The notes under the pieces were generated by a model, which saw only the letters and a list, made by a program, of their open reading frames with translations, was not told where the DNA came from and searched no databases. 64,000 nucleotides of DNA, from NCBI GenBank assembly GCA_964597575.1, contig CAZQXB010000001.1, forward strand, positions 402,111 to 466,110, written 5' to 3'. Below, in pieces: positions 5,250-59,254 of the stretch (positions are counted from its first letter, which is position 1; each line of letters begins with the position of its first letter). The DNA is from an uncultured Gammaproteobacteria bacterium (GTDB taxonomy: Bacteria > Patescibacteriota > Patescibacteriia > Magasanikbacterales > UBA922). A program made the position numbers and the translations under genes.

Positions 5250-6785
5250 ATGGATAACAAGTTCTGTCCTCACGGCAAGCACGTGAAGTTCTGCGGCGAA
5301 TGCGGCAATCTGTGGTTCGAAGTGCAGGCGCCCCATGTCTGGATGAACAGCATGGACCCTGGACGAGATGCGGGGATCGGTCTGATGAAAGAGCGTCACG
5401 GTATCGTCACGGTGACTGTCGAGCAGCACCATCCGAGCCTCGGTCTTCTCGACAAGTCTGTGGTGATGGTGCATGTTACGGGACATCTCTTCGTTTGGGG
5501 TATCGAGAAGATTCTCGAAAACGCCCCGAACGTCAAAGAGATTCAGGTTCAGCCACACATGGTGAAGAAGCTGACCGACGCTCACCGTACTCTCTGTGCA
5601 AAAGCTGGAGTCAAGTTGACGAGCGGATACTCAGACCCTGACCGTGCTTGGGAAAAAGGTGAGGTGAGACGGTCGCCACGTTTCCTAAAGATACGGAAGT
5701 TCTTTCAGCTTCTCGAAGGCCAGCAAAAAAAGCTCTTCGACGAGCTCATCGAGTATGGTATCGAGTCGGCCCTCATGGCTCGGGACTACTACGAGGAAGC
5801 AAGTGACGGAAAGGAGGGGGAGGAGCCTGTCACACTGCATACTCTGTGTAAAAAGTACGGGTACAACGACAGTGTGATGGCCCACATCTCAGCTCGGATT
5901 TACTCCGTGCTAGTGTACCTCGATCCTAATTACAAAGTGGGGCAGGATTCGCGACGGCTTGCTCGTGTCATGAAGGATGATGTTGAAAGGCTTCGTGAGA
6001 AGTTCGCGACTGCAAAAGCAAGGCAGGATCAGGCAGCCGCGCTTGGTCTCCGAATTCTTCCTGTCGACATGCCACTGCAGCTCTACGATGAGTTGGAGAT
6101 GGTTGTTACTGCCCAGAGGAAGGGCTGGCTGAAGCAACTCCAGGCTGCAAGGCCGCGAGCGCATCGTGCTCTGACGCTGAGGTACGACATACGGGATACG
6201 CAAAATCCGCGTTTTCGTACCCTCGAAGAGGTGGCCGAGACGATGGGTGGCGAGGATTTCAAGACGCGCGAGAGAGCTCGTCAGTTGGTGGAGCAGGCTA
6301 TCGAGTTTTTCGTCTTGCAAGGACAGGCAAGCGGTGAAACTCTGAGAGCTGGACGCGTGCAGGAGAAAGCGACGAAGATCGTCCAGAAGAAGGCCGCTCG
6401 GGCAAAGGCTGGTCCTGTAACTCAGTTGACCAAGGTTCCTGGTCCCGTCGAAAAGCAGGTGGTGAACCTGGTTTGCCAGTCTTATGGCTTGCCTGAGACT
6501 GAGATCTTCACTCACGGCAAAGATCAGCCGTGGGCAGAAGCTCGACAGGTCATCATGGCTCTGTGGAGACGGTACCTCAACTGGTCCTACCCGCTGATCG
6601 CAAGAGAGATGGGTAAGGAAGATCACACGACGATCATACATGGTTGTCGAGAGATCGCCAGTCGTCGGAAGACCGACCGAGTGCTTGAACAGCGGATGAC
6701 GCTGATCGAGATGATGCTCGGCAAGCCGCCGCCCGACTTGAGCGCCATCGAAATTTCCCCAGATCCTTCCACTGCCTCGCAATGA
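5250..6785 (+). CDS. high-GC Zn-ribbon / sigma70-region-4-like HTH / DnaA domain IV-like HTH fusion protein (putative DNA-binding regulator or replication-initiator-like)
   Basis: N-terminal CPHGKHVKFCGECGN; RALTLRY..RTLEEVAE..TRERARQLVEQAI resembles sigma70 region 4; EARQVIMALWRRYLNWSYPLIAREMGKEDHTTIIHGCREIASRRKTD resembles DnaA C-terminal domain IV; about 58-60% GC against flanks of about 33%. Confidence 0.6.
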   Translation: MDNKFCPHGKHVKFCGECGNLWFEVQAPHVWMNSMDPGRDAGIGLMKERHGIVTVTVEQHHPSLGLLDKSVVMVHVTGHLFVWGIEKILENAPNVKEIQVQPHMVKKLTDAHRTLCAKAGVKLTSGYSDPDRAWEKGEVRRSPRFLKIRKFFQLLEGQQKKLFDELIEYGIESALMARDYYEEASDGKEGEEPVTLHTLCKKYGYNDSVMAHISARIYSVLVYLDPNYKVGQDSRRLARVMKDDVERLREKFATAKARQDQAAALGLRILPVDMPLQLYDELEMVVTAQRKGWLKQLQAARPRAHRALTLRYDIRDTQNPRFRTLEEVAETMGGEDFKTRERARQLVEQAIEFFVLQGQASGETLRAGRVQEKATKIVQKKAARAKAGPVTQLTKVPGPVEKQVVNLVCQSYGLPETEIFTHGKDQPWAEARQVIMALWRRYLNWSYPLIAREMGKEDHTTIIHGCREIASRRKTDRVLEQRMTLIEMMLGKPPPDLSAIEISPDPSTASQ

Positions 6786-6910
6786 GGCGCCCTTGAGCTC
6801 ACGCTCGGGCTTCGCGACTTCGGGTCAGTCGCAACAAATCAAACCGTCCCGATAGGTGATACTATCGGGAACATTCAAAACATCATCTCACTCGAGGTGA
6901 TTTTTTGTTT

Positions 6911-7074
6911 ATATATAGTGAGTATTACTCTCGGGTAACTGGTAAAAGGCTCGGAATATAAACATATCCTCTCTCTTCACGTATAATAGTTCCGACCCCC
7001 TTTACCAAGCTCTGCAACGAGAAACATGGCTATACAAAGCCATGTTCTTTGTATACCCCTGTGTGGAATCGAAC
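6911..7074. repeat. inter-cassette repeat copy C (full)
   Basis: Direct alignment to copies B and D. Confidence 0.75.
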
Positions 7075-7214
7075 CAAGGTGTAGTTCTAAAGAAAACTTT
7101 ATGATTTTTTTATCTAGGGTATGATATGTTCCTTTAGTTATTCTGAGTACCCTATTGTATACTCGACATACCGTGTATTCTTCAGTAGGGTACGCCCAGA
7201 ATAATCTATTTTCT

Positions 7215-7880
7215 ATGAACCGTAAAAACAACACTCTCATTGCATTACTAGTAGTTATCGTTATTCTCCTTATCGGAGGGTATGTTGTACTTGTCCAAAA
7301 AGAAAACGAACCAATGGTAGGTCCAGATAATGGAAATGGAACATCGGTTGAAATTCCATCTACCACACCATCTTCTAGTGAAGAGATAGTAAATAATGGA
7401 AGTTGGGAAAAATATACTTCTCCAGATTTGGGTATTTCATTTGAATATCCAGCAAGTCTTAGTCTCTTTCAAGAGCGTAAGGATACTGACCGCGGAGAGG
7501 GAAATTTTGTCATTCTGAAACGTGAGAATGAGCAGAGAAGATTTCTAGGAACAGTACTGGTAAGTTCTCCTGATTATATACGAGAAATTGATGGTTTTCC
7601 TTCCTATATGTCAGGAGATTATTTTTTGGATCAAAGCGAAAGTGAGATAGAAAAAATTATTAGACAGAGAATTCATGCGGTTACAGCCATTACCAAAATG
7701 CCAAATAATTTTTATGCAATTACGCAAGAATATGTGTTTGGTGATAATCCTGTAAAAGGGACATTTTATTTCACTCAAAGAAAAAATAGTGAGTTACTTA
7801 ATGTAAGTATATATCAAGTTGATGGGGTTATTAGTAAGCAAGAAGATTTAGAGAATTTTTTAGAAAGTTTCAAATTTTAA
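7215..7880 (+). CDS. hypothetical membrane-anchored/secreted protein
   Basis: ORF with N-terminal hydrophobic anchor MNRKNNTLIALLVVIVILLIGGYVVL; track ORF begins at 7155. Confidence 0.4.
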   Translation: MNRKNNTLIALLVVIVILLIGGYVVLVQKENEPMVGPDNGNGTSVEIPSTTPSSSEEIVNNGSWEKYTSPDLGISFEYPASLSLFQERKDTDRGEGNFVILKRENEQRRFLGTVLVSSPDYIREIDGFPSYMSGDYFLDQSESEIEKIIRQRIHAVTAITKMPNNFYAITQEYVFGDNPVKGTFYFTQRKNSELLNVSIYQVDGVISKQEDLENFLESFKF

Positions 7881-8013
7881 AGTTAGGAGAATTTGGTTGA
7901 GGTGATTGCGTACATGCTTGGCAGTATCCTCAACCAAATTTTGGCTGAGGTTCTTTCTAGAACTCATTGGATAACCCGATGATACTGCAAAGAAAAAATG
8001 AAGGGGTGCTGAC

Positions 8014-8110
8014 ATGCAGGCGATCGTTCGTTTTCTGCTATGTATGCTGGTGTTCTGTCCGTGGTTCGCTGCGGCAGATTACCAGGGACCTGTGTTATTT
8101 TCACCCCCCA
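8014..8110 (+). CDS. possible small high-GC hydrophobic peptide (MQAIVRFLLCMLVFCPWFAAADYQGP...), 3' extent uncertain
   Basis: GAAGGGG RBS 7 nt upstream of the ATG; high-GC hydrophobic N-terminus; reading frame runs on into AT-rich promoter-like sequence without a stop. Confidence 0.2.
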
Positions 8111-8171
8111 CTGTAAAAAATATTTACCTTAACACAAAAAAATGTTATGATAAAATCATAAGGAGGTGCAA

Positions 8172-8477
8172 ATGTCGGAATTCGAAAAAGATGCTGCGGT
8201 GCAGCTTGTGGCTGTGCTGCTTGTCGGCGGACTGCTTGTCCTGATCGCCCTGCACTTTGTTGTCTATTTTCTCTTCAGAGGCGTGCAGCCATTGGCTGCT
8301 GCTAGGATGCCTGCCACAGATCAATCTTTTTTAGAGCCAGATGCCACGCCTTGCGATGAAGAAGATCCTGAAGAGATGCGACAGTGCACAGATGCATGGG
8401 TGAGGGCAAGAGAGGCGGAGGGCGCAACTATCTTGCGGACACGAGACGGGCATGGGATTGTGGCTCTGGGCCCTTAA
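8172..8477 (+). CDS. small high-GC membrane protein with acidic C-terminus (hypothetical)
   Basis: AAGGAGG RBS and extended -10 (TGTTATGAT) upstream; one TM helix; about 60% GC. Confidence 0.4.
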   Translation: MSEFEKDAAVQLVAVLLVGGLLVLIALHFVVYFLFRGVQPLAAARMPATDQSFLEPDATPCDEEDPEEMRQCTDAWVRAREAEGATILRTRDGHGIVALGP

Positions 8478-8529
8478 CGATAGTGAAATCGATCCAGGGC
8501 TCCAGCCTCCAACGATCTGCTTCTGCTCA

Positions 8530-8585
8530 CAGAGTCACTTGCTATTGCTGTGACTCTTTTTTATGTTCCGTGCGTGGAATCGAAC
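8530..8585. repeat. inter-cassette repeat partial copy E (different hairpin agagtcac..gtgactc + T-run, conserved 3' motif ccgtgcgtggaatcgaac)
   Basis: 3' motif matches other copies. Confidence 0.55.
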
Positions 8586-8597
8586 TAAGTTAGATCA

Positions 8598-9236
8598 TTG
8601 AAAAGAATGAGGCTTTATGCTAGTGCATGTGTATTCTTAGATCTATCTTCTATTTTGTTTATTATGAATAATAAAGGTTTGTACGTCATCATTGCGTTTC
8701 TTTTGGTCATCCTTTGCGTTGTTGGATATAAAGCATATTCTGTTTCTGATCGTACATTGTCTCCAAATGAGCAGTTCTTAAATCAAGAAAATAACCCATC
8801 AAATGAAAATAAAGGCAATACGCTTACTGATTCTCTCAAAAACAGTAAGGGTTATAGCGCTGGCGATACACGTGATATCTCTTCGTTATCTAGTTCGGAT
8901 ACGAGTAAAGAACTCGATATTGCATTGATCCAGGATGTTAAAACTATTCAAAATCAAAATATCTCTTATAAGTTTTATCGAGTTGGATTTGGCGATGCGC
9001 CTCCACACTATAGTAATGGACAAATTATCGTTGAAGTAACGACGAATCAAAAAGGTCCAAGTCGATGGTATTATTTTAATACTGATATTATTGATGCTGA
9101 TTCTATTGAATCACTCCTGTTTAGTGGTGAGGATGTGCGTATGTCTTGTAAAACAGGTAAACCAAATGGTACATGTTTATATACGATAAAATTTCAACCA
9201 GACTTGGAGATGTTAAAAATTTATAAAGTAAATTAG
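8598..9236 (+). CDS. hypothetical membrane-anchored secreted protein
   Basis: ORF; TM anchor LYVIIAFLLVILCVVGY; real start may be an internal Met near 8663. Confidence 0.4.
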   Translation: MKRMRLYASACVFLDLSSILFIMNNKGLYVIIAFLLVILCVVGYKAYSVSDRTLSPNEQFLNQENNPSNENKGNTLTDSLKNSKGYSAGDTRDISSLSSSDTSKELDIALIQDVKTIQNQNISYKFYRVGFGDAPPHYSNGQIIVEVTTNQKGPSRWYYFNTDIIDADSIESLLFSGEDVRMSCKTGKPNGTCLYTIKFQPDLEMLKIYKVN

Positions 9237-9378
9237 TAGACCTCCTTGACACTAAGGTTAAATTACGTTAGGATTTCGAGCGACCAAAAGGTCATCACAT
9301 GCGTGGTGATTTTTTGTTTACTCATTCCTGTTCTTGTGTTACTTTTAATTTGTAGAATAACAAAATTTTATTTTTCGT

Positions 9379-10119
9379 ATGTCAGAAGGTCCAAAACGTT
9401 TTGAGTTAGGCCAGATGTTTCTTCGAGAAACAAATAGTATTCCACAAGCAGACAAATGGTTAGAAAACAGGGCTGAATGGATGGTTGGGGCTGCTCAAAT
9501 CAAAAAATATTTGGCACCAAAAATTGAATTTCGTGACAGATTGGCTGGAGAGGTAGAAAAAGGAGTAAAGGTGTTAGCTATTGGTGCAGGAAAAGGACAT
9601 GAGCTTGATGAAATGGACAGCATTCTTCCTGGCTCAGAAATCATAGGTCTTGACCCCGATGATTTTTATTCTCGACCAGTAAAGCAAAAACTAGAAAAAA
9701 CTGCCCATAATGCGTCATATCTTCCAGAAACTATTCGTGCAGAAAATTTAGAGGGTGTAGAAAATGCTTCACTAGATGGTGTAACATTATTTTTTGTACT
9801 CCATCATATTGATGAACAAAAACACGGCGCTGTTTTAAAAGAAATTCATCGTGTTCTTAAGCCAGATGGAAAGGTGTTTATCGCTGAAGATTTGGTAGAT
9901 AACGATGAGGAAAGAAAAATAACCGAAAGAACGGATCGTATTTTGAATACTGAGTTATCAGGCAAGAATTCACATCATTACCGAAGTATTCCTGAGTGGA
10001 AAGTTTTTTTTCATACATACGGCTTTGAAATAATAGAGGTAAGCGAACAGAAGCCTGATAAAGTTCGCCATGGATTTTTTGTATTAGAAAAAGCAAACAT
10101 TTTACAAAATAATACATAG
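9379..10119 (+). CDS. class I SAM-dependent methyltransferase
   Basis: Motif I VLAIGAGKGHEL and post-I acidic residue; LKPDGKVFIAE motif. Confidence 0.55.
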   Translation: MSEGPKRFELGQMFLRETNSIPQADKWLENRAEWMVGAAQIKKYLAPKIEFRDRLAGEVEKGVKVLAIGAGKGHELDEMDSILPGSEIIGLDPDDFYSRPVKQKLEKTAHNASYLPETIRAENLEGVENASLDGVTLFFVLHHIDEQKHGAVLKEIHRVLKPDGKVFIAEDLVDNDEERKITERTDRILNTELSGKNSHHYRSIPEWKVFFHTYGFEIIEVSEQKPDKVRHGFFVLEKANILQNNT

Positions 10120-10174
10120 TCACGGTAGATTTATAATATAATCAACTAAGACGGGGAAGGTTTTTTTGTTTGTA

Positions 10175-10337
10175 GATATATAGTGAGTGCTAGTGTGGGG
10201 TAACTGGAGAAACATATGGAATATAAATTTATCCCTTCTCCTCACGAATAAAGTTCCGACCTCTTTACCAAGCTCTGCACCGAAAAACATGGCTATAACA
10301 AGCCATGTTTTTTGTATACCCGCGTGAGGAATCGAAC
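10175..10337. repeat. inter-cassette repeat copy D (full)
   Basis: Direct alignment to copies B and C. Confidence 0.75.
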
Positions 10338-10351
10338 TAAAATTAAAATGT

Positions 10352-22230: not shown

Positions 22231-23664
22231 ATGACACATGCGAATAGTGGCCAGTCTTCTGGCTTTGGGAGCCTCGGCTTGGCCGAATCTCTCCTCTCTC
22301 TTCTTACGAAGAAAGGTTTTCAGACGCCAACGCCGATTCAGGCGGAGGCAATTCCTGTTGCGCTTACTGGCCGCGACGTGGTTGGTATTGCGCAAACTGG
22401 AACCGGAAAAACCCTCGCTTTTGGGCTTCCAATGCTTGAGCGTTTAGCTCGAACAAAAGGGAAGGGTTTGGTTATTTTACCAACTCGTGAATTGGCTCTC
22501 CAGGTAGATACCGTTTTACAAAATATCGGATCATCGCTCGGTCTCAAAACCGCAGTGCTTATTGGTGGTGCTTCGATGCATACCCAATTGCAGCATTTGA
22601 AGCGAAACCCTCATGTGATTATCGCGACCCCAGGTCGTTTGGTTGATCACATGAAACAAAAAACGATCAACATGCAAGACGTTTCTATTGTGGTTCTCGA
22701 CGAGGCCGACCGCATGTTTGATATTGGATTTGCTCCGCAAATTATCCAAATTTTGGGAACCTTGAAAAAAGATCGTCAGACCATGTTATTTTCTGCAACC
22801 ATGCCCACAGAAATTGCGGGCTTGGCACACAAATACATGAAAGATCCAGCTCGTATTGAAGTCGCACGTCCTGGTGTTTCTCCAACAAAGATTACACAGG
22901 AGATATATATGGTTCGCAGAGAACAAAAAATTTCTTTGCTGCAAAAATTACTTGCTGATTTTAATGGTACGGTATTGGTTTTTTCTCGCACCAAACATGG
23001 GGCAAAGAAAATTGCTGTAGCCATTCGTCGTATGGGTCATACCGCGGATGAAATTCATTCGAATCGCTCACTTGCGCAACGCAAACGCGCACTTCACGGG
23101 TTCACCACCGGAAGTCATCGCGTGCTTGTGGCAACAGATATTGCCGCTCGTGGAATTGACGTGACGAATATTGAGCTTGTTATTAACTTTGACTTACCAG
23201 ATCAATACGAAGATTACGTTCACCGTGTTGGTCGTACGGGTCGAGCTGGGCGTGAAGGTCATGCGATTTCTTTTGCTACGCCTGAAGAGAGAAATGATGT
23301 GCGTGGTATTGAGCGATTAATTGGAAAGTCAATCCCTCTCCTTGTTGTACCTGCAGATTTGCCGATGCTTCCTCCGCCACTCCCAGGGGACAGAGAACCA
23401 AGACCATACGGGCATACACCGCGTGGCGGCGGGTTTGGTCGTAGTCCTCGACCAAGAAATTTTGCCCCTCGCGGAGGTGGTGGTCAGAGTCGTGGATTTA
23501 GTCGCGGCCCTCAAGGAGGGCAAGCCAGTGAAGGGCGGAGCGCTGATGCCCGCCCGGCTGCGCGTTTTAATAAGCGTCACCCGGCACACCGTAATCGTTT
23601 ACGCTCTGAAGGCTCTGGTCGCCCACAAGCGCCACGTCATGCTCCATCTCGTAATTCCTACTAA
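22231..23664 (+). CDS. DEAD-box ATP-dependent RNA helicase with RGG-rich C-terminal tail
   Basis: Motifs AQTGTGKT, DEAD (VVLDEADRM), SAT, HRVGRTGRAG; C-terminal RGGGFGRSPRPR repeats. Confidence 0.9.
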   Translation: MTHANSGQSSGFGSLGLAESLLSLLTKKGFQTPTPIQAEAIPVALTGRDVVGIAQTGTGKTLAFGLPMLERLARTKGKGLVILPTRELALQVDTVLQNIGSSLGLKTAVLIGGASMHTQLQHLKRNPHVIIATPGRLVDHMKQKTINMQDVSIVVLDEADRMFDIGFAPQIIQILGTLKKDRQTMLFSATMPTEIAGLAHKYMKDPARIEVARPGVSPTKITQEIYMVRREQKISLLQKLLADFNGTVLVFSRTKHGAKKIAVAIRRMGHTADEIHSNRSLAQRKRALHGFTTGSHRVLVATDIAARGIDVTNIELVINFDLPDQYEDYVHRVGRTGRAGREGHAISFATPEERNDVRGIERLIGKSIPLLVVPADLPMLPPPLPGDREPRPYGHTPRGGGFGRSPRPRNFAPRGGGGQSRGFSRGPQGGQASEGRSADARPAARFNKRHPAHRNRLRSEGSGRPQAPRHAPSRNSY

Positions 23665-23673
23665 AAAAATAAT

Positions 23674-23704
23674 AAAACCCGGTCTCGTCGATCGGGTTTT
23701 ATTA
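23674..23704 (+). terminator. intrinsic terminator after helicase gene
   Basis: AAAACCCGG...CCGGGTTTT hairpin + T-run. Confidence 0.6.
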
Positions 23705-23814
23705 TATAAAAAACGGAAAAACGCCCTTAAAGACGTCGCGTAAATACTATATGAAAGGGTTTGGGGCGGAGGAGGGACACGGGTCTCTCCTCCGCGGGGG
23801 GTGTGGGCCGATGA

Positions 23815-24210
23815 TCAGGCGAAGGTGTTGTACCCGAGGTGCGGCTTGGTTCGCGTGAGCTCGATTGCCGTGAGCTTCCCGCTCATCTGTCCGATGGCGC
23901 TGTGGAACGCCGCCACCAGATCTCTCGAAGCGATCATGGTGGTGCCATCTTTGGTCGTGTGGGCCGACGCCGCGGCTTCGAGCCACTCCTCGATCTTGGT
24001 GGTGTCAGCACCAGTCACTTCGAATTCTTCGGTGGTCGTTTTCTTGTCCCCACCATACACGATGGTAAGGGTGAAACGAAGGCCGTTTCCCTGCTCACCA
24101 ACACATACTCGTAGTTTCATTTCCGAACCTCCTACTTTCTTGTCTTCTCCTCTGAGCCAAAACCCCGAGCCTTCTTGTCTTCGGGGGAGTATAGGGATCC
24201 CATCTTCCAT
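23815..24210 (-). CDS. hypothetical high-GC protein (131 aa)
   Basis: Balanced amino-acid composition; consensus TTGACA-17-TATACT promoter on the minus strand at 24282-24254; about 58% GC; overlapping plus-strand ORFs look low-complexity. Confidence 0.4.
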   Translation of the reverse strand: MEDGIPILPRRQEGSGFWLRGEDKKVGGSEMKLRVCVGEQGNGLRFTLTIVYGGDKKTTTEEFEVTGADTTKIEEWLEAAASAHTTKDGTTMIASRDLVAAFHSAIGQMSGKLTAIELTRTKPHLGYNTFA

Positions 24211-24299
24211 ATACTCCTACGAACACAAACTAACAAAGGAGTATACTACTTGTTTACTTTTTTGTCAAGTAATAGGGGCCGTGCTATCATAAATCTACT

Positions 24300-28223: not shown

Positions 28224-28317
28224 TCTGCTCTTTTTTACCTTATTTGAGAGGAAAAACCATTGACAGACGCAGCTTTTTCTGCTAGGCTTCTCCGCGAGGC
28301 AAAGGAGGCCTGTCTTG

Positions 28318-28863: not shown

Positions 28864-28885
28864 CGGTTCGCGATCAAGGTTCCCG

Positions 28886-28951
28886 CCGGACACCTTTTCT
28901 CACAAAAGTCCGGTCAATGCAAAAACAGCTTTTACACAAAGGCTGTTTTTG
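28886..28951 (+). terminator. 3' module: hairpin CCGGAC..GTCCGG followed by terminator AAAAACAGC..GCTGTTTTTG
   Basis: Two consecutive hairpins and a T-run; homologous module at 42271-42330. Confidence 0.55.
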
Positions 28952-35345: not shown

Positions 35346-35379
35346 AAGTCGTTGTCTGGACGACTGTTGGTGAAATGGT

Positions 35380-35766: not shown

Positions 35767-35909
35767 GTCGGAAAATCCTCCCTAAATCAACACTCGTCCA
35801 GACCACACACTATACCACAAAATAGCCCTTTTGTCAAGAGGGGAAAGGGGTGTTCACTTCATCTATTTTTAGCCTAAAAACAGGTGAAGGGAGCCGAGAA
35901 CGTGAGGTA

Positions 35910-36783
35910 TCACGGTCGGCGAGGGTTCATGTCCGCGATCTTTTTTGCGAATTCGTCGCAGAGCGCAGTTGCTGCGGGGTTTTCCGAGAGGGTAAGGACA
36001 AGGTTCGCTTGATGCCATTCTACGTTGAAGAGTGCGGTGCACGTTTCGTGGGCGGTTTTCGGTTTGGCATTCACCATATCGAGAAACACAGAAGCCCGAC
36101 TGACTTGGGCGATACCGATGAGGAGGAGCAGTGTTTCGTGTGGGTGAGTACCTAAGTCTCCTCTCGCGCCGAGGATTGTGGCGTAGGCCCGAAGTCGCGC
36201 TGTCGCGGCCGCAATCTGAAGCTCCGAGTTCGACAGAAGGTCATCGCACTTTCCCACATCCCAGCCCGAATACTCCTTGATGTACCTTCGGCACTCTTCC
36301 GTCGTCATCGAGAAGAGTCCAAGGTATCCGGCGGTATTCTGGGTGGAATTTTGTTCGCTCAGTGCGTGGGCGAGAGCGCGCATGACTTCTGCGGAAAAAG
36401 GAATGCAGTTGGCATACATCTTGTAGTCAGCGACGAACAGTGGGTCCTGGAGCATGAGGGGGATAGTACTCGAGGGCTGCACTCTGCTGGCGCCCTGAGT
36501 CATCACTCCCCGAAGTGTGGGTTGGGTAAGCAGGCATTGTGCCTCGTTCGGTTCCCCGAACGGCCAGGCCCCCAGATACTTTAGTCCTTCGAAGAAGCGT
36601 CCGGAGATTTCGAGCGAGTGCCTCACGTCGCTATGGGTGCGAGCGAGGACGGAGTCACGACTCTCAGTCTCCGGAGCCTTGACCGGCTCGACATTCAACT
36701 GCTCTGCCGTGCAGCTGTAGCCACAGAAGAGCGTGAGGAAGCCGAGGGCGGCGAAGACGTGCGGGAACATTCTTGTGTTCATT
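35910..36783 (-). CDS. high-GC secreted protein, possibly lysozyme-like/SLT-like
   Basis: Signal peptide MNTRMFPHVFAALGFLTLFCG; ...NTAGYLGLFSMT... resembles the SLT GLMQ region (weak); own TTGACA-17-TATAGT promoter and AAAGAGG RBS. Confidence 0.4.
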
Positions 36784-37013
36784 TGAAGGCCTCTTTTTTC
36801 TGCCGTGTTTCTTGTCGAGAAAGCACGGTCATACACTATAGCTAGGTCATGGTCGTTTGTCAATGTAAAAAAGGAATTTTTGGAAAAACAAAAACCGCCG
36901 TGTGGCGGTTTGTTCACTATCATTTTTCTTCATCCTTATGAAAGAAAATGAAAGGGGCCGAGATCAATACGCGTTGTGCGTTGATCTCGGCTGGGAGGTG
37001 GTAGGACGGTCGC

Positions 37014-37946
37014 CTACTGCTTGGGCTGGTACGCTTTGCACACGCCCACAGCGTGCCGCTTCTCCGCAGCGGTGAGTGGGTCGAGTTCTCGGCCGACCTT
37101 CTTCATCCAGGCTGCATCCACGATCTTCTCGCAGAGATTGCCGAGAGAGCCATCGGGGAGGGGCTTGGAGGAGAGAACCATGTGGAGGGTGCCATCGCCG
37201 AAGTAGTATCCGGTGTAGAGGACCATGAGGTACATGGTCTCGTCTCTGGAGTATGCGAATCCACCGTTCTTCTCGTGGTCAGCGATCTCGAGAGACAGCC
37301 TGCGTACGAACCCTGCGGCCCCCGCAACCTGGATCTCGACATTTTCGAAGGTCTCGCCGTCCTTCGCGAAAGGGGTACAGTCCGTGCCTGCTTCCCAAAC
37401 AGGGAGAAGGACATCTGCGCAGGTCTTGTCGAGCATCTCGAACAGTCCGTTGCCTCGGATCCATCGAACCCCTCGGGGGTTAGCGGTCGTCCATCCCGCA
37501 TGAGGATCCTCCTTCGAAACGACGCGAGCGAGGATCTCCAGGAACTCAGCACCATGGGGGGTGCAGCCCCCATACTTCCGGTACAGGGCACTGATCTGGG
37601 ACTTGTTGATCCGAGCGCGCGTACTCGTGAGTACGCGACCCTGGAGTTCGTGGTGATCGAGAGGGCATGGCAGCCCGCTCTGGTCGCCGCTGTTGATCGG
37701 GCTGTCCGTGACCAGGTTGACTGCCTCGATGAGGTTGTTCTTCCTGGTCGCGTACGTCGCGATCTCGCGGTTCAGGGTGCTGATCACCATACTCCGGTAT
37801 CGGGCCGTTGTTCCTGTGTCCGTTCCGGAAGCGATGGTCGACAGCGACTCGGTCGCGACGACACCGTTGCCCTGGCATCCGTTCATGAGGATGAACACGC
37901 TGATTGCGATACTGAGAAGGGCTATTACGATTGCAATACGTGCGAT
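37014..37946 (-). CDS. high-GC secreted/lipoprotein-like hypothetical protein
   Basis: GTG start 6 nt after AAAGGAG; signal peptide MIARIAIVIALLSIAISVFILMNGC; own TTGACA-17-TATAGT promoter at about 38054-38026. Confidence 0.4.
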   Translation of the reverse strand: MARIAIVIALLSIAISVFILMNGCQGNGVVATESLSTIASGTDTGTTARYRSMVISTLNREIATYATRKNNLIEAVNLVTDSPINSGDQSGLPCPLDHHELQGRVLTSTRARINKSQISALYRKYGGCTPHGAEFLEILARVVSKEDPHAGWTTANPRGVRWIRGNGLFEMLDKTCADVLLPVWEAGTDCTPFAKDGETFENVEIQVAGAAGFVRRLSLEIADHEKNGGFAYSRDETMYLMVLYTGYYFGDGTLHMVLSSKPLPDGSLGNLCEKIVDAAWMKKVGRELDPLTAAEKRHAVGVCKAYQPKQ

Positions 37947-38104
37947 CACAGCAAACTCCTTTGGTTGTAAGGTGAACCACTCATGCCTCCACATTGGGGC
38001 AGATATGGCTTCTAACTATAGCATATTTTAGCCATTTTGTCAAGAGATGCGAGCCTCGGAATCTCATTGCTTTTTTGCCTGAGTTGAGCTATACTTGATT
38101 CATT

Positions 38105-41762: not shown

Positions 41763-41774
41763 AAGAATTGCATA

Positions 41775-41814
41775 AAAAAGAAAGAACACTGAACAAGTGT
41801 TCTTTCTTTTTTAT
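41775..41814 (+). terminator. intrinsic terminator (AGAAAGAACACT-gaac-AAGTGTTCTTTCT + T6)
   Basis: Perfect 12-bp hairpin. Confidence 0.65.
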
Positions 41815-41862
41815 TGACACAGAATACGATTGTGCCCTATTCTTCCCCTGAAAGGGGGCTAC

Positions 41863-42246
41863 ATGGCTAAAAAGACACCTGCGAAAAAGCAAAAAACCGT
41901 GGCCAAGAAAAACCCGAAAAAGAAGGCTAAGGCGGTTCGGTACTACTGTGCTGCCTGCGAGTCGAAGGGCGATCCTACGGTCTGGAAGGATCATGACCCT
42001 AAAGCATGTCCGCGATGCGGCGAAGACGGTGACATCTTCCGCGACGAGCTCTTCGAGTGCAACATTTGCGAGGAGACGTGCCCTGAGGCCGAACAAGATG
42101 ATGCCAAGGTCGGCGACCCGTGTAGCATGTGTGCCGTTGATGTGAAGAGTGGAGTAAGAACTCCGGCCAATGCCGGGGCGTGGAAAACGAGGAAGCCGCG
42201 CAAGATCAACTGGTCTCCGAAAGTGCCGGTAGCCAAAAAGAAGTGA
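41863..42246 (+). CDS. high-GC lysine-rich double Zn-ribbon protein (hypothetical nucleic-acid binding)
   Basis: CAAC...CPRC and CNIC...CSMC pairs; K-rich termini; AAGGGGG RBS; about 60% GC. Confidence 0.4.
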   Translation: MAKKTPAKKQKTVAKKNPKKKAKAVRYYCAACESKGDPTVWKDHDPKACPRCGEDGDIFRDELFECNICEETCPEAEQDDAKVGDPCSMCAVDVKSGVRTPANAGAWKTRKPRKINWSPKVPVAKKK

Positions 42247-42270
42247 GGGATGGAAGTCAGGAGGGGGCGC

Positions 42271-42330
42271 GTCCGACGTTCTTCGGACACTACAAAAACA
42301 GCTTTTCCGAGTAAGGCTGTTTTTGTTTTC
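42271..42330 (+). terminator. 3' module: hairpin GTCCGA..TCGGAC followed by terminator AAAACAGC..GCTGTTTTTG
   Basis: Same architecture and near-identical terminator sequence as 28886-28951. Confidence 0.55.
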
Positions 42331-50539: not shown

Positions 50540-50757
50540 TACCCACCGAATAGGAGGGGTATTGTAGCACTGTTTGAATTGAATTGGGAAGTGATCTAGA
50601 ACGTGCCCTGAAACGCCGGCATGATGGTAAAAAACAGCATAGATAAAATGGCAACGATGCTGATAAAGATCCAGAGTCCTTTGGTGAATTTAGAGTGGTA
50701 CATAGAGGTACATTATGATCCCCAGTATGCCATACCCGCGAACCTCTGTCTATTGAC

Positions 50758-50786
50758 AAAAGGGGTGAAATGTGGTATACTGCTTG
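50758..50786 (+). promoter_or_regulatory. consensus promoter TTGACA-17-TATACT driving small high-GC ORF
   Basis: Perfect -35 and near-perfect -10 hexamers. Confidence 0.5.
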
Positions 50787-50832
50787 GCTCTAGAGATGCA
50801 CAAGAATGTGCGTCTACGAGCGGAGGGCTTTG

Positions 50833-50946
50833 AATGTCAATTCGTGTGATCGTCTACGTCGTCGCCATCGCGTGCTGCATGCCACTGCTCCTGCCGGCCT
50901 TCTGGAAGGTCGTGGTCCAGCAGCCAGCAAACCCGCATTGGTAGAC
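50833..50946 (+). CDS. 37-aa hydrophobic peptide (MSIRVIVYVVAIACCMPLLLPAFWKVVVQQPANPHW), type I toxin-like small membrane peptide candidate
   Basis: GCGGAGGG RBS 6 nt before the ATG; single predicted TM helix; terminator at 51042-51075; high GC. Confidence 0.3.
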
Positions 50947-51041
50947 CGGCGCAAGCGACAACTGGGGCTCCGGTGTGCACTCTGTGTGCGCCGCGAACCC
51001 CAATATCTTTGTGAAAAGAAAGTATTCTTTTTAGAAAGATC

Positions 51042-51075
51042 AAATCCGACCTTGTATGGTCGGATTTGTATTTTG
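51042..51075 (+). terminator. intrinsic terminator AAATCCGACC-ttgtat-GGTCGGATTT + T-run
   Basis: Perfect 10-bp hairpin. Confidence 0.65.
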
Positions 51076-54535: not shown

Positions 54536-54652
54536 AATTTTCGCTTATTCTAGCACGGGAGAAGAGAAAAAACAAGCCAGAAATGCGAAACCCACCAGTT
54601 GTTGAGTTGGTGGGTTGGTAGAATGGACCTCTGAGGGGATTAGCCGGATAGC

Positions 54653-55198
54653 CTAAGCCCCGGCCGTGAGTTGCTTTACATCAGCGGCAGGAAGCGCCTT
54701 CATTGCGCCCAGGGCGAGCGAGAAGATGGTTGAGCTTCCGGGGTTCGACGCGTGGCGCTCGAGAAGCCCGGTGCCCGCAAGGGTCTGCAGTGCCGCCCAC
54801 ATACCGAACCGGTCAAAGTTTTCGCCCTCGCGCTCAATACCCTCTCTGACCTCCTGGAGCGTATATCCCTTTGCTGGTTCAGTGGGATTCTCGATCCATT
54901 GAGCGACGAACCAGTTGCTGACCCGAGCGATGAGAGACACGTCATCCTCTCGTGGGTCCGCGAGGTCAGCCGGACGAAATACCACGACTGGTTTTGGGGT
55001 GAGGACAAGCTCCGCTGAGAGGGCTCCGGCGCGAAGAAGGTCAGCCAGCTGGGGTGAGACATCATCCTCTGTCGTTCCGGTAGCCTCAGCAATCTGTGCT
55101 GCAGTGAAACCGAATAGGGTCTCCATCGGTCTTTTTTCCCACATGTTCTCGATTGTGTTCGGCAAAGATCGGGCGATTTGATTCTTATTCAGGGCCAT
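54653..55198 (-). CDS. hypothetical high-GC protein (181 aa)
   Basis: TTGACC-17-CATACT promoter overlapping the murJ stop; ACGGAGGA RBS; about 60% GC. Confidence 0.4.
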   Translation of the reverse strand: MALNKNQIARSLPNTIENMWEKRPMETLFGFTAAQIAEATGTTEDDVSPQLADLLRAGALSAELVLTPKPVVVFRPADLADPREDDVSLIARVSNWFVAQWIENPTEPAKGYTLQEVREGIEREGENFDRFGMWAALQTLAGTGLLERHASNPGSSTIFSLALGAMKALPAADVKQLTAGA

Positions 55199-55239
55199 TC
55201 TTGTCCTCCGTAGGCCACCAGTATGCCACAACAATCCAC

Positions 55240-56856
55240 CTAGGTCAAGGTATCGTTTTGAGGTGGTGCGCTTGGAACTTCACGGATATTTACAAAGCGC
55301 TTGTTTAAACTTTCAAAGAATCGAAGCATTTCTTCTGTCTTTAAAAGAAATGTAAGTCCGGTATATACAATGAGGCCGATACACCCAGCCACGAATCCTT
55401 GGGTAAATATTCCCCAGAATCGGGTCATGTCAACAAGTGCTGCAAGCGGTCCTTTTACATACTGTACGATAAGCCCCATCACAATGGTGGCGACGGTCAT
55501 TTTCAATAATGATGGAAGACGCATTTTTTCATGAAGCGTACCAAGTGCTAACCGAAGCGTGGTCCAGAGTACCGCAAATTGGATGACCGCCCCTGCCGAG
55601 AAAGCGAGTGCGAGGCCCGGGGCGCCAAGGGTTTTAATCGTGAGGGGGCCAAGGGCAATAGTTGTGATAGTGCCAAACACTGCAGCGAGAAGCGGCATAG
55701 TGGTATTTTCTCGGGCAAAGTGAGCGCGCGCTAAAAGGGGGATAAGGCCTTGTGCAAATAAGGACACGGCAAAAAAGGCGACGGCATCAGCCGTATCAAT
55801 CGTCGCACTCCAATCAAACGCACCACTCCCTAAAATAACTCGGACAATTTGGGCACGCAGAAGAATGAGAAGAGCGGTACACGGTAAGAGAAAAAATAAT
55901 AATTGCCCAACCGTTTGAGAGATTTGAGTGCGAAGAGCGGGAATATCATCTTTTGCTGCAAGCTCAGACAGGGTGGGAAACGCTGCAACCGCAAAAGAGA
56001 GTGCAATCATCCCAATCGGTACATACTGGACATTATTGGCAAATGAAAAAACACTGAGTGCACCAGCGCCTAACGTTGATGCAAGAGAAGTGATATAGAG
56101 AAGATTTGCTTGAGCGGCCCCGAGTCCGAGAAGTCTTGGGATCATGAGGCGTAAAATGGTTCGTACTTCTGTGAGTTTTGTGGTAAGGTTTGGGCGAAAA
56201 ACATACCCTAACCGAAAGACGCTCGGAAGTTGTATCGCTACATGAAGGAGGGCGCCAAGAATGACTCCGTACCCTAAGCCGATAGGTCCAAATATGGGAA
56301 CAAACAAACACGCCCCAAGCATGATACCGACATTATAGACAATCGGGGTCAGGGCGTAGACGCGAAATAACTTGTGCATTTGTAAAATACTTCCGAGGAT
56401 TCCGCTGACCCCAAGAAGAATGGGGGAAAGCAGCATGATTTTCGTAAGAGTAAGGGTAAGGGCTCGCGTTTCCGCGTTAAATCCAGGAGTGAGTTTTTCT
56501 ATAAAAAAAGGAGCGGCGAGGAAAGCGACAAATGAAAGAGCACCTAAGCCGACGAGTGTGAGAGAGAGAATGGCATTGGTTACCTCTTTTGCTCGAGCAT
56601 TTTTTTCTTTGAGAAGTCCTCCAACAACTGGAATAAACCCAGCGGAAAGTGCGCCAACAATCAGGAGTGTGTAGATGGTATCGGGAATGCGGAAAGCGGC
56701 GTAATACGCATCAAGGGTTGGCCCTGCGCCGAAAAGGTGGGCTAAGAGTCGGTCACGCAAAAGGCCGATAATACGACTTAAAAAACCGGCGAGCCCGAGA
56801 ATCACGGCCGCGCCAGTAATGGTTTTCGATTGTGTAGAAAAAAGACGGGGAATCAC
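55240..56856 (-). CDS. murJ: lipid II flippase MurJ/MviN
   Basis: 14-TM MOP-superfamily topology, conserved N-terminal RDRLLA motif. Confidence 0.8.
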   Translation of the reverse strand: MIPRLFSTQSKTITGAAVILGLAGFLSRIIGLLRDRLLAHLFGAGPTLDAYYAAFRIPDTIYTLLIVGALSAGFIPVVGGLLKEKNARAKEVTNAILSLTLVGLGALSFVAFLAAPFFIEKLTPGFNAETRALTLTLTKIMLLSPILLGVSGILGSILQMHKLFRVYALTPIVYNVGIMLGACLFVPIFGPIGLGYGVILGALLHVAIQLPSVFRLGYVFRPNLTTKLTEVRTILRLMIPRLLGLGAAQANLLYITSLASTLGAGALSVFSFANNVQYVPIGMIALSFAVAAFPTLSELAAKDDIPALRTQISQTVGQLLFFLLPCTALLILLRAQIVRVILGSGAFDWSATIDTADAVAFFAVSLFAQGLIPLLARAHFARENTTMPLLAAVFGTITTIALGPLTIKTLGAPGLALAFSAGAVIQFAVLWTTLRLALGTLHEKMRLPSLLKMTVATIVMGLIVQYVKGPLAALVDMTRFWGIFTQGFVAGCIGLIVYTGLTFLLKTEEMLRFFESLNKRFVNIREVPSAPPQNDTLT

Positions 56857-57551
56857 AAACCAAGAGGGTTGCCAACAATCATGAGTCGCATGGTGTCGGT
56901 GCCAGATGCTTTTGAGGTGTCTGAAATAAGAAGAGTGCCGTTTATGGTATGATTTTTATTGTTGAAAATAAGCTCCTTCGCTGTGTCGGTGTTTTCCGTA
57001 ACCGTAATTTCAAAATTCACTTTTGCGAGCTCAGTTTGGTAATAGCGAAAAATAAAGGATGGCTGAGCGTTCAGGTTTTCCCAGGTTATTTCCACGCGGT
57101 CGGTCAGGGTGCGTTCGGGAAGGATTTGGGGTAGTGATATGCGCTCCGCGTTATTTTTTGAAAGATTCTCGATCCAAATAAAAATGGTGTTGCCAGTAAT
57201 TTTTTTGTAACTATCAGTGCGTTTCGTAATAATGACGGTTTCAATAGCATCTTTGTCGTAGATAGGAATGGAGTTCGGAAAACTATTTGGAAGAAGGCCT
57301 GTTTTTATGGTATTTGGTGTGGCAACTGCGCGGAGAAAAAGAAAAAATCCAACAATGGCAAGTACGAAAAAAAGACACCCGGTCATACAGCCACGCTTGA
57401 GGCACGAAGGGCGTTTTTTGTTGAGGCGCTCCAATGGGGGGCTTTTGATTTCAATAGCGTCTCCGACACGTCTCATATACGAGAAAGTATAGCAGAAACC
57501 GATACTTCTGAATAGACATGCAGACAAAAAATGAGATACACTACCCACCAT
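56853..57551 (-). CDS. hypothetical membrane-anchored protein
   Basis: ORF with N-terminal TM segment, translationally coupled to murJ. Confidence 0.35.
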   Translation of the reverse strand: MVGSVSHFLSACLFRSIGFCYTFSYMRRVGDAIEIKSPPLERLNKKRPSCLKRGCMTGCLFFVLAIVGFFLFLRAVATPNTIKTGLLPNSFPNSIPIYDKDAIETVIITKRTDSYKKITGNTIFIWIENLSKNNAERISLPQILPERTLTDRVEITWENLNAQPSFIFRYYQTELAKVNFEITVTENTDTAKELIFNNKNHTINGTLLISDTSKASGTDTMRLMIVGNPLGL

Positions 57552-58918
57552 ATATTTATGACCGCTTTATGTTTTTGACTTTTTACGGTGCTGCGCACGA
57601 GGTGACAGGATCTTGTTTTCTTCTTGAAACAAACGGAGCGAGATTGCTGATTGATTTTGGTATGTTTCAGGGGTCAGATTTCAATGAAGGAAAAAATCAC
57701 GACAAACTTCCTTTTGATCCGAAAACGATTGATGCGGTCTTAGTTACCCATGCCCACCTCGATCACACTGGTCGTATTCCACGTTTGGTTCGAGAAGGGT
57801 TTACGGGAAAGATTTTTTTAACTGAGGCGACAGGGGAATTGGCGCGGCTAGTGTGGGAAGATGCGTACCACATCATGCTCTATAATAACCAAAAGTTTCA
57901 ATCTCCCATTCTCTATAATGAAGAAGATATTAAGCGAGCGGTTGATCAGTGTCAGGGCGTGCCGTATCGGAAAGAGGTGGAAATTGCGCGTATGGTCACA
58001 GCAGTGTTTAAAGATGCGGGCCACATTTTCGGTTCGAGTTTTATTGAAATTACGGCTGAAGGGAAAACGATTGCATTTTCTGGAGACCTTGGAAATAGCA
58101 ATGTGCCTATTCTTCAAGAAACTGATCAACTTGGGCGGGCCGATGTGCTTTTGGTTGAGTCAACCTATGGAGATCGTTTGCATGAAGGTCGAAAGGAGAG
58201 TCGGGAATTGCTTCTCTCCCTTATGAAAGAAGGGGTAGCGCGGGGCGGAACTATTATGGTGCCTGCATTTTCAATTGAGCGTATCCAAGAAATGCTCTAC
58301 GACTTGTACCACATGAGCGAGGCCGGGTTACTGCCACGTATTCCGATTTTTCTTGATAGCCCGCTCGCAATTAATGCCATGGCCGTGTATAAAAAATATC
58401 CCGAATATTACGATGTTGAAGCAAAAGAATTATTTCAAGCCGGAGAGGATTTTTTCCAGTTTCCAAACCTTACGCTTACGCTCAGTCGTGAAGAATCAAA
58501 AAGCATTAATAATGTGATGGGTCCGAAAATGATTATTGCCGGAGCCGGCATGATGACTGGGGGGCGCATACTCCACCATGCCTACCGGTACCTTTCTGAT
58601 CCAAAGTCGACTCTTATTATTACTGGGTATCAGGCAGAACACACGCTCGGCCGTCGTTTATATGAGGGAGCTGAGACCGTCCAAGTTTTTCGCGATACGA
58701 TTCCCGTGCGCTGTACCATTAAAGCAATTGGTGGGTTGTCCGCCCATGCAGATCAAGAAAAATTAGTCAGCTGGGTGCGGGGTGCTGAGGCATTGCCAAA
58801 AAAAATCTATTGTATTCACGGTGAGCCAACTTCTTCAACGGCTCTTGCGCATCGGTTCCGCGATGAACTTGCTGTGCCATCATTTATTCCCGAAGCAGGT
58901 GAGCGAGTGGAAATCTAA
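57518..58918 (+). CDS. MBL-fold beta-CASP ribonuclease (RNase J/CPSF-like)
   Basis: HAHLDHTG metallo-beta-lactamase motif, beta-CASP motifs, GGLSAHADQ; true start may be Met at 57569. Confidence 0.75.
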   Translation: MQTKNEIHYPPYIYDRFMFLTFYGAAHEVTGSCFLLETNGARLLIDFGMFQGSDFNEGKNHDKLPFDPKTIDAVLVTHAHLDHTGRIPRLVREGFTGKIFLTEATGELARLVWEDAYHIMLYNNQKFQSPILYNEEDIKRAVDQCQGVPYRKEVEIARMVTAVFKDAGHIFGSSFIEITAEGKTIAFSGDLGNSNVPILQETDQLGRADVLLVESTYGDRLHEGRKESRELLLSLMKEGVARGGTIMVPAFSIERIQEMLYDLYHMSEAGLLPRIPIFLDSPLAINAMAVYKKYPEYYDVEAKELFQAGEDFFQFPNLTLTLSREESKSINNVMGPKMIIAGAGMMTGGRILHHAYRYLSDPKSTLIITGYQAEHTLGRRLYEGAETVQVFRDTIPVRCTIKAIGGLSAHADQEKLVSWVRGAEALPKKIYCIHGEPTSSTALAHRFRDELAVPSFIPEAGERVEI

Positions 58919-58924
58919 GAGAAA

Positions 58925-59254
58925 AAGAAGGACCCCGGCGCTCGACTGATCTTGGGAGAAGACCAGGAGCGCACGGGGCCAGGGGGATTCTACGCTGAGG
59001 TGGGTGAGGCTTTTTCTATCGTCGTAGATACGACAGAAAGTTCTGCGAGAGCGTCTTTCGGGTTTCGCATCCTCCATGAAACCTACGCTCATGCCGTTTA
59101 CCTTATCCCAGTACTCGCCCTCAAAGTCGGCTGGATCTTTTTCGACCACTTGTCGTAGTCGGGGACTTTTTCCAACCATGGAGGTCGGGGGGGGACCTCT
59201 GACGAGTGGGGTGAGTGATTTCAGTATAGGTCGGAGGGTGAGAACGTGTCAAAT
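58925..59254 (-). other. high-GC promoter-driven transcript unit (TTGACA-18-TATACT at 59251-59223) of uncertain coding status
   Basis: Strong minus-strand promoter; GAGGTC-C7-GACCTC hairpin immediately before the first ATG; the 99-aa ORF lacks an RBS. Confidence 0.3.

Follow-up and report, generated by a model that had tools for sequence, protein, structure and literature searches.

GC-rich single-gene units between core operons of a Magasanikbacteria-like chromosome: possibly long-resident accessory genes rather than mobile modules

We analysed a 64,000-nucleotide (nt) stretch of DNA (the window; GenBank assembly GCA_964597575.1, contig CAZQXB010000001.1, positions 402,111 to 466,110), which is a chromosomal segment of a Magasanikbacteria-like Patescibacteria (Candidate Phyla Radiation) genome, and within it a set of genes rich in guanine and cytosine (GC), here called units A to K. 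The original prediction had read these as a family of recently acquired mobile or addiction modules. We propose instead, with moderate confidence, that they are accessory genes specific to the clade and long resident in it, with GC-rich coding sequences that are actively maintained, and not mobile elements. Several units already occupied their present loci when the window lineage split from relatives with a synonymous divergence (dS) of ~1.2-1.3 in flanking genes, and the units are under purifying selection. Those that could be traced hold a third-codon-position GC content (GC3) of ~0.6-0.8 beside neighbours at 0.3-0.45. Shared loci, purifying selection and persistently high GC3 together suggest that the composition is maintained, rather than being the fading trace of a transfer.

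Against a background GC of 0.466 (window 10201-64000), native genes have a GC3 of 0.417 +/- 0.035 (range 0.36-0.50, n=40). Eight open reading frames (ORFs) have a GC of 0.55-0.59 and a GC3 of 0.62-0.74, the lowest of which lies 5.9 standard deviations over the native mean, and the GC3 distribution in the window is bimodal. Three compositional classes can be distinguished: the native genes, a low-GC block at 190-10340 (GC3 0.23-0.31) and the eight high-GC3 ORFs, which as called are:

5250-6785 (+), unit A
23815-24210 (-), unit C
28315-28863 (+), unit D
35380-35766 (-), unit E
35910-36923 (-), unit F
37014-37994 (-), unit G
41830-42246 (+), unit H
54653-55234 (-), unit J

The GC contrast described originally is therefore real, but the 58-62% quoted for it was too high: the modules as first delimited have a GC of 0.50-0.59, and 0.58-0.61 is reached in single 300-nt windows only. 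Moreover, three of the nine modules first listed (8014-8477, 50833-50946 and 58925-59254, corresponding to units B, I and K) are weaker than the rest.

In the proposed frames GC is highest at the third and lowest at the second codon position (GC3 > GC1 > GC2). The shift from native genes to units runs through all degenerate classes, from 0.47 to 0.62 at four-fold sites, from 0.34 to 0.67 for NNC/NNY, from 0.31 to 0.69 for NNG (Lys, Glu, Gln) and from 0.18 to 0.75 for ATC/Ile, being greatest at two-fold sites and Ile, and homologs of the units in relatives show the same shift. Some GC-ending codons nevertheless drop in the units (GCG from 0.29 to 0.22, CGC from 0.28 to 0.17). Because the genes for DnaK, DnaJ and ribosomal protein L31 are not GC3-rich, ordinary high-expression codon bias is an unlikely source of the pattern. 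The rise in GC begins at the start codon and extends 50-100 nt into the 3' untranslated region (UTR), while promoters and leaders are AT-rich; in unit A, coding sequence at 55% GC directly follows a 150-nt leader at 22-34%. So sharp a boundary at the start codon, together with the GC-rich hairpins that follow the stop codon, favours selection acting on the message.

The age of the units was judged from their loci in relatives. Two of these, L107 (GCA_964654085.1) and L113 (GCA_964646505.1), are syntenic with the window (12-32 kb), with 72-80% nucleotide identity and amino-acid identities of 86% for the Cu-ATPase and 73% for the DEAD helicase. In both, an ortholog of unit C lies convergent to the DEAD helicase gene as it does in the window. 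These orthologs are 41-44% identical to the window protein, align with it over the full length with conserved motif blocks, and have a GC3 of 0.80 (L107) and 0.67 (L113), compared with 0.30-0.48 in their neighbours. In a third relative, L109, the BacA gene (product 74% identical) stands divergent from a gene of the F/G family (the lipoproteins of units F and G) under a near-identical promoter. This gene has a GC3 of 0.77 against 0.43, its product is 28-32% identical to the window lipoproteins, and a second copy of the promoter follows it, suggesting that the tandem arrangement is ancestral too. Another F/G family gene, in L106, has a GC3 of 0.70 beside L31, RF1 and PrmC genes at 0.35-0.38. The family members P0012 and P0016 have an ordinary GC3, so high GC3 belongs to the copies in this clade, not to the protein family at large. 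Homologs of unit A in L083 and L084 (70% and 52% identity) lie beside tRNA genes and have a GC3 of 0.58 and 0.62. All homologs whose genomic context could be recovered are in low-GC Patescibacteria chromosomes. Thus every traced unit (A, C, F/G) has orthologs of equal GC in relatives, C and F/G at the same loci and A beside tRNA genes, which speaks against the mobile or addiction modules of the original prediction; the precise presence or absence expected of such modules was seen in one case, unit D, which is absent in L113.

Codon-level comparisons gave a dN/dS (the ratio of nonsynonymous to synonymous divergence) of 0.12-0.28 for the units, with 0.16 and 0.12 for the unit A homologs. We used a two-state model of amelioration, with native equilibrium GC3 and 70% of synonymous changes taken to alter GC, to ask how much of an initial GC3 deviation would survive since the split, finding that it should have shrunk to ~40%. 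Projected backwards, units C and G and their relatives would have had a GC3 >1 at the split, which is impossible; under this model, a simple recent transfer followed by amelioration therefore fails. The direction of change within unit A points the same way. When synonymous changes were polarised with L084 as the outgroup, the window lineage had 12 AT-to-GC against 12 GC-to-AT changes and the L083 lineage 9 against 16 (small samples), where amelioration would predict a GC-to-AT excess of ~2.5 to 1 (P = 0.024 against it for the window lineage). Parsimony tends to bias such polarised counts toward apparent amelioration, so the test on unit A would be conservative. Of the recent acquisition first suggested, then, the atypical composition held up, but the traced units are present at orthologous loci and show no decay.

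In this reading, each unit is an autonomous single-gene transcription unit, with a near-consensus sigma-70-type promoter, a Shine-Dalgarno sequence and a GC-rich coding sequence, usually ending in a GC-rich hairpin just past the stop codon and then an intrinsic terminator, and occupies a gap between core operons. Of the causes considered for the maintained composition, the likeliest is selection acting on coding regions and 3' UTRs: messages with GC-rich synonymous sites and 3' hairpins would, alongside the strong promoters, be stable and well expressed, and the predicted outcome is a high, operon-independent expression of cell-envelope or regulatory proteins, with new units now and then gained or swapped at the same gaps. 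Purely as candidates, we rank such selection first, slot-like replacement second and biased gene conversion third. A stronger claim, that this Patescibacteria lineage keeps a strongly promoted, fast-evolving class of single genes in a separate codon dialect through synonymous-site selection, we regard as doubtful. If it were true, the dialect (GC3 0.6-0.8 against 0.35-0.45) would amount to a compositionally partitioned expression programme for envelope or host-interaction proteins, controlled for example by mRNA stability or the tRNA pool.

Several observations weigh against long residence with selected composition. The amino-acid composition of the units also drifts slightly toward GC-rich codons, so a general GC pressure fits equally well as codon-level selection, and predicted mRNA structure relative to synonymous shuffles gave no clear signal (mean z -1.3 for units and -0.6 for native genes, in 300-nt segments only). 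The amelioration model assumes an equal mutation process in units and neighbours and uses saturated dS estimates. Three units (A, C and F/G) were traced, in few relatives that are mostly short contigs. Unit D is absent from the gap between the ABC-F and phosphoglucomutase genes in L113, and the set would therefore comprise old residents and newer arrivals; that gap (L113 2987-3633) holds an unrelated 111-residue ORF on the opposite strand, with a GC3 of 0.49 and a good Shine-Dalgarno sequence. Inter-operon gaps thus behave like sites of gene gain or exchange. Finally, the extreme divergence of coding sequence beside a conserved promoter or leader could reflect cassette-like replacement.

That last point leads to the alternative that survives best, though we think it improbable: recurrent replacement from an unsampled GC-rich pool (phage, plasmid, host or another Patescibacteria lineage), with the conserved flanks serving as fixed 'slots' for homologous recombination and each copy compositionally fresh. 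It would account for a unit C protein that is 41-44% identical between relatives next to a 48-nt leader element that is ~95% identical, for a lipoprotein that is 28-32% identical under the same promoter as a BacA that is 74% identical, and for the unrelated gene in the unit D gap of L113. A portable terminator-plus-promoter repeat that brackets variable cassettes, at tRNA-Trp here and between CsoR and HisRS in L113, also speaks for it. However, no reservoir was found. Searches of phage, plasmid and IMG/VR collections gave nothing but generic DnaA domain IV matches (one family alignment was too divergent for scanning viral contigs), and the homologs that could be located are all in low-GC Patescibacteria chromosomes. 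The unit C orthologs, with their full-length alignment and motif blocks, behave like vertically inherited genes, the polarised changes in unit A resemble compositional equilibrium, and no repeats flank the chromosomal units.

GC-biased gene conversion at recombination hot spots in fast-evolving genes is, in our estimate, somewhat less probable again. All degenerate classes shift, and amino acids do so slightly; the GC rise reaches the 3' UTR and GC3 is apparently at equilibrium, as conversion would predict, and fast protein evolution fits diversifying, recombining loci. A rise of GC3 from ~0.4 to 0.8 is, however, very large in comparison with bacterial reports, the boundary at the start codon is sharp (in unit A, from 22-34% to 55% GC), and GCG and CGC codons fall while GC3 rises. 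GC-rich synonymous variants have been reported to give higher mRNA and protein levels in bacteria, and biased gene conversion has been put forward as a hypothesis. Maintained composition in the units resembles those cases of GC selection in that GC3 is held above its mutational level by a force beyond mutation bias, but differs in that the reported effects are genome-wide or modest, whereas the units stand 0.25-0.4 in GC3 above their immediate neighbours.

The proposal that the units are recently acquired, self-contained mobile or addiction modules inserting precisely between housekeeping genes now seems very unlikely to us. It draws on their atypical composition, on the promoter and terminator of each unit, on the absence of unit D from a relative and on the position of units A and B inside a repeat-bracketed array. 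However, all three traceable units have positional orthologs with equally high GC3, and neither target-site duplications nor terminal repeats were seen: in a test of the nine chromosomal unit boundaries, and of the three-gene cluster as a whole, the target-site signatures looked for gave longest direct matches of 7-9 nt, no better than random window pairs, and only units A and B lie between repeats (the tRNA-Trp array). No transposase, integrase or recombinase was found when the unit proteins were scanned with Pfam, NCBIfam and PHROG and the array ORFs with Pfam, nor did Pfam or PADLOC return relevant matches among toxin, antitoxin or defence families; the PHROG, PADLOC and NCBIfam scans of the units returned only a receiver domain and DnaA domain IV. 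There is one ORF between promoter and terminator in each unit, with no gene pairs. The products are as diverse as first described, being unrelated apart from the weakly paralogous pair F and G, and form no sequence family. The promoter motif, too, is shared with native genes. TTGACA-N16-18-TATANT has 8 exact sites in the window, where 0.1 would be expected; six of them precede units and the other two a DEAD helicase gene and tRNA-Val, which argues for the lineage's own strong promoter rather than one borne by modules.

The units can also be compared with known systems. Phage morons are single-gene promoter-ORF-terminator insertions of deviant base composition in lambdoid phages, and the units share with them the layout of one gene between a sigma-70 promoter and an intrinsic terminator of its own, the position between unrelated genes and the deviant composition. 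Unlike morons, the units lie between chromosomal core operons with no prophage, nearby phage genes or matches in phage collections, and several are positionally conserved across diverged relatives. Toxin-antitoxin modules are likewise small, scattered on the chromosome and equipped with their own promoters, but the units are single genes with no toxin, antitoxin or defence match, and several of their products have signal peptides or transmembrane segments. In the concept of Lawrence and Ochman, horizontally acquired islets and orphans are known by atypical GC and codon usage and ameliorate over time. The units resemble such islets in composition, narrow distribution, position between core genes and turnover in at least one gap; they differ in showing no compositional decay despite a flanking dS of ~1.2-1.3, in the balance of their changes and in that no donor lineage was found. 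Genes of atypical GC and codon usage are as a rule taken to be recent transfers, an inference that would be wrong in this lineage, because the odd composition persists at orthologous loci whose synonymous sites are near saturation. Some force, be it synonymous-site selection, biased gene conversion or repeated replacement, holds a gene class off the composition of its genome. If it is selection, the units would offer a clear example from nature of GC upheld gene by gene in a minimal genome, and would flag highly expressed proteins, including lytic-transglycosylase-like lipoproteins possibly acting on the cell wall.

An origin of the pattern in assembly chimeras, mis-called ORFs or GC-rich structured RNA genes, to which the wrong-strand public calls of units G and H and the short, strongly structured units I and K (z -6.3 and -4.1) with their doubtful ORFs might point, is in our view highly improbable, since the same arrangement recurs in relatives and in independent assemblies (window 34115-45766 is 100% identical to an independently assembled 34-kb contig from run SRR13355620), the proposed frames have GC3 > GC1 > GC2, two units have Pfam domains, the protein-level homologs have a dN/dS well under 1 and no Rfam family matches.

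The description of the modules as self-contained promoter-ORF-terminator units wedged between core genes was borne out, with two qualifications. Near-consensus promoters were said to precede every module; besides the six exact sites, the remaining units have weaker ones. A hairpin with a T-run lies downstream of most units, but no clear terminator follows 35910-36782. The predicted overlaps with neighbours are also present: the promoter at 55220-55248 overlies the 3' end of murJ (Pfam MurJ, 2.6e-86), the promoter at 24240-24268 shares part of its -35 box with the divergent msrA promoter (24262-24290), and in the three-gene cluster at 35380-37946 units E, F and G each carry their own TTGACA-17-TATAGT. 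The units and their parts are as follows.

Unit A, 5067..6901 (+): promoter TTGACA-17-TATTAT with upstream TG at 5067-5095; AT-rich leader of ~150 nt; ORF 5250-6785, 511 residues; GC-rich 3' hairpins 6790-6832; terminators 6847-6901
Unit B (weak), 8172..8562 (+): ORF 8172-8477 after AAGGAGG, a single-pass membrane protein of 101 residues; terminator 8529-8562
Unit C, 23664..24268 (-): promoter TTGACA-17-TATACT at 24240-24268; leader of ~113 nt; ORF 23815-24120, 101 residues; GC-rich hairpin 23768-23793; terminators 23664-23737
Unit D, 28260..28952 (+): promoter-like TTGACA-17-TAGGCT at 28260-28288; ORF 28318-28863, 181 residues; terminator 28919-28952
Unit E, 35315..35837 (-): promoter TTGACA-17-TATAGT with upstream TG at 35809-35837; ORF 35380-35766, 128 residues; terminator 35315-35334
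Unit F, 35910..36863 (-): promoter TTGACA-17-TATAGT at 36835-36863; ORF 35910-36782, 290 residues
Unit G, 36892..38043 (-): promoter TTGACA-17-TATAGT at 38015-38043; ORF 37014-37949 or 37014-37994, 311 or 326 residues; terminators 36957-36991 and 36892-36911
Unit H, 41814..42329 (+): promoter TTGACA-18-TATTCT at 41814-41843; ORF 41863-42246, 127 residues; terminator 42294-42329
Unit I (short), 50753..51074 (+): promoter TTGACA-17-TATACT at 50753-50781; GGAGGG upstream of a 37-codon hydrophobic ORF, 50834-50947; strong hairpin 50964-51001; terminator 51042-51074
Unit J, 54567..55248 (-): promoter TTGACC-17-CATACT at 55220-55248; ORF 54653-55198, 181 residues; terminator 54567-54617
Unit K (uncertain), 58915..59252 (-): promoter TTGACA-18-TATACT at 59223-59252; transcript of ~300 nt; long hairpin and T-run 58922-58980

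Some starts differ from those of the ORFs as called. The start of the 35910 ORF was corrected to M48 (36782), because its own promoter falls inside the long ORF, and that of the 23815 ORF to M31 (24120); the 37014 ORF probably starts at GTG 37949. In NCBI and Logan, the public gene calls P0003 (37053-37970, +) and P0004 (41991-42404, -) run antisense to the real genes, so the true proteins are missing from protein databases. High-GC3 genes avoid TTA, CTA and TCA codons and the antisense frame thereby stays open; we therefore rejected the long antisense ORFs as a special feature and regard them as an expected by-product of this avoidance. With at least two public gene calls on the wrong strand, such proteins are invisible to ordinary homology searches. 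In the L113 record, the ABC-F gene call seems over-extended at its 5' end (664 against 613 residues).

Two further observations concern the signals themselves. The terminators at 28919-28952 and 42294-42329, which belong to the unrelated units D and H, have nearly the same sequence (AAAAACAGCTTTT..GGCTGTTTTTGTTT, ~84% identical), a likeness that may be a shared house style or a copied element. A copy of the promoter motif (CTCTTGACAAAAGGG..., 59340-59382, -) runs antisense within the first part of uvrB as annotated, and its -35 box and a TCTACA box are 26 nt apart. By its sequence it seems to be a consensus promoter that was duplicated and has since decayed; the true start of uvrB may lie downstream of the annotated one.

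The unit products are near-orphan, fast-evolving proteins. In a HMMER scan of 1.84e9 representative proteins with five unit proteins concatenated as the query, which recovered their own sequences as a positive control, unit F had three remote relatives, units G and C one each, and units D and J none, with 0 non-self matches for either. Scans with Pfam, PHROG, PADLOC and NCBIfam assigned no family to unit C (a small protein), D, H or J. The unit D protein has two N-terminal hydrophobic helices and an acidic linker. Unit E (GC3 0.74) is a stand-alone receiver domain (Pfam Response_reg PF00072, 1e-18, 67.9 bits against a cut-off of 30.2), whose translation shows the receiver residues DD, LLITD, MVSS and DKPF (acidic pocket, phospho-acceptor Asp, Ser and Lys). 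The unit H protein has Lys-rich tails and four CxxC pairs, from which we read it as a putative zinc-ribbon-like basic protein; the DnaJ zinc finger matches it weakly (E 0.048). Unit J has a GC3 of 0.62.

The leader of unit C contains the 48-nt element mentioned above (24161-24208, -; GGAAGAYGGGATCCCTATAYTCCCCCGAAGACAAGAARGCTCGGGGTT), with counterparts at 1-90 in L107 and 10009-10164 in L113. It is ~95% identical between relatives, where the adjoining coding sequence has ~55% nucleotide identity; it has no Rfam match and its predicted fold is not significant (z -1.3). From its conservation, it may be a regulatory leader.

Units I and K may be unrecognised small RNAs. The unit I transcript (50788-51080, ~290 nt) is highly structured, with a fold z-score of -6.3 against shuffled controls, and has no Rfam matches apart from the terminator hairpin. 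An ORF at 50806-51117 was tried as GroES and rejected, as it has no Pfam match and the downstream protein of 526 residues is not GroEL. Unit K has a 99-residue ORF (58880-59179, GC3 0.58) without a Shine-Dalgarno sequence, and its transcript (58915-59216) has a fold z-score of -4.1 against shuffled controls, so that it may be a structured non-coding RNA rather than a protein gene. An RNase P-like RNA was suspected here, but no Rfam match supports it. Rfam scans, run on the full window and on three of the units, gave two tRNAs and chance-level matches only.

Units F and G, next to BacA, are weak paralogs with predicted lipoprotein-type signal sequences in both. The homologs of unit F are P0012, P0013 and P0016, of which P0016 is a type IV secretion pilin fused to an SLT domain (Pfam SLT 2.5e-7) and P0013 matches SLT at 0.0037; the window proteins themselves have no Pfam match. 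A search with the 326-residue product of unit G in a word-index protein collection found nothing, a weak negative because the locus is gene-called on the opposite strand. Searched against PDB, the family profile matched only Slt70 (E 0.32). We modelled the family with AlphaFold2 from a six-sequence alignment (predicted local distance difference test, pLDDT, 75; predicted TM-score, pTM, 0.75), and the top Foldseek matches in PDB were all lytic transglycosylases, below significance (E 0.7-1.7, TM-scores <=0.56). Both window copies lack the catalytic Glu of the Glu-Ser motif: in front of the invariant Ser, F has Leu and G has Val; in alignment A3, Glu precedes this Ser only in P0013 and P0016. 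Thus, the model points to a distant, lytic-transglycosylase-like relationship for units F and G, which we do not file as members of SLT (PF01464) because the fold matches are below significance and the catalytic Glu is absent from both.

Units A and B differ in setting from the rest, lying in an array of cassettes downstream of tRNA-Trp, whose parts are:

117-189, tRNA-Trp
60-10340, array region
1441..10337 (+), cassette array
1441-1607, 4885-5051, 6908-7074 and 10171-10337, direct repeats of ~165 nt
8529-8585, partial repeat junction

Each repeat contains a degenerate 3' part of tRNA-Trp, a bidirectional terminator (AAACATGGCT..AGCCATGTTT) and GTGGAATCGAAC; downstream of it comes a promoter. 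The cassettes are low in GC (GC3 0.23-0.31) bar units A and B, and their order differs between relatives: the unit A homolog is first after tRNA-Trp in L083 (1-2072) and the gene is third in the window. In L113, copies of this repeat (17207-17330 and 19915-20048) enclose a different pair of low-GC genes, at a tRNA-free site between CsoR and HisRS. In their setting, units A and B are like tRNA-linked islands and integron-like arrays, as direct repeats of a tRNA 3' part bracket cassettes of varying content and order, but unlike them in having no integrase in the window (a Pfam scan of the array ORFs found none), in a ~165-nt repeat with a terminator and then a promoter, and in the tRNA-free occurrence in L113. 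Within the array, it is the low-GC cassettes rather than the high-GC gene that look like recent arrivals.

The unit A protein (GC3 of its gene 0.63) has a Cys-rich N-terminal motif, a long middle region of no recognised fold and a C-terminal helix-turn-helix of DnaA domain IV (residues 403-489; Pfam Bac_DnaA_C 1.2e-17; PDB DnaA domain IV 7e-9). It is not a full DnaA, as domain IV alone matches and TIGR00362 scores 62.5 where 343.9 is the cut-off. Its AlphaFold2 model is poor (pLDDT 56). For unit B, the region 8014-8477 had been given as one module, but it is not a single ORF; the best candidate is 8172-8477, with only a modest rise in GC3.

The core genes around the units encode a DEAD-box helicase, MsrA, Sua5, ABC-F, phosphoglucomutase, BacA, the CCA-adding enzyme and YidC, and further HrcA, GrpE, DnaK, DnaJ, RecJ, LepA, MurJ, a beta-CASP nuclease and UvrB. 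By its CCA-adding enzyme, the best species representatives are Candidatus Magasanikbacteria or 'Patescibacteria group' assemblies (59-67% amino-acid identity), in which gene order is too rearranged for presence/absence tests, and a search of metagenome contigs with BacA gave solely distant relatives (<=51% identity). Elsewhere in the window, an ORF of 1315 residues at 17544-21491 (+) stands out by its GC at second codon positions (0.53, unusually high) and has no more than a marginal Pfam match. The syntenic relatives L107 and L113 lack it and carry an AAA_18 kinase gene in its place. A fatty-acid-desaturase-like gene at 7628-8449 of L005, a relative further removed, has a GC3 of 0.72 against a median of 0.51. 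It lies just upstream of an apparent tRNA gene, identified by eye, and looks like an ordinary transferred gene.

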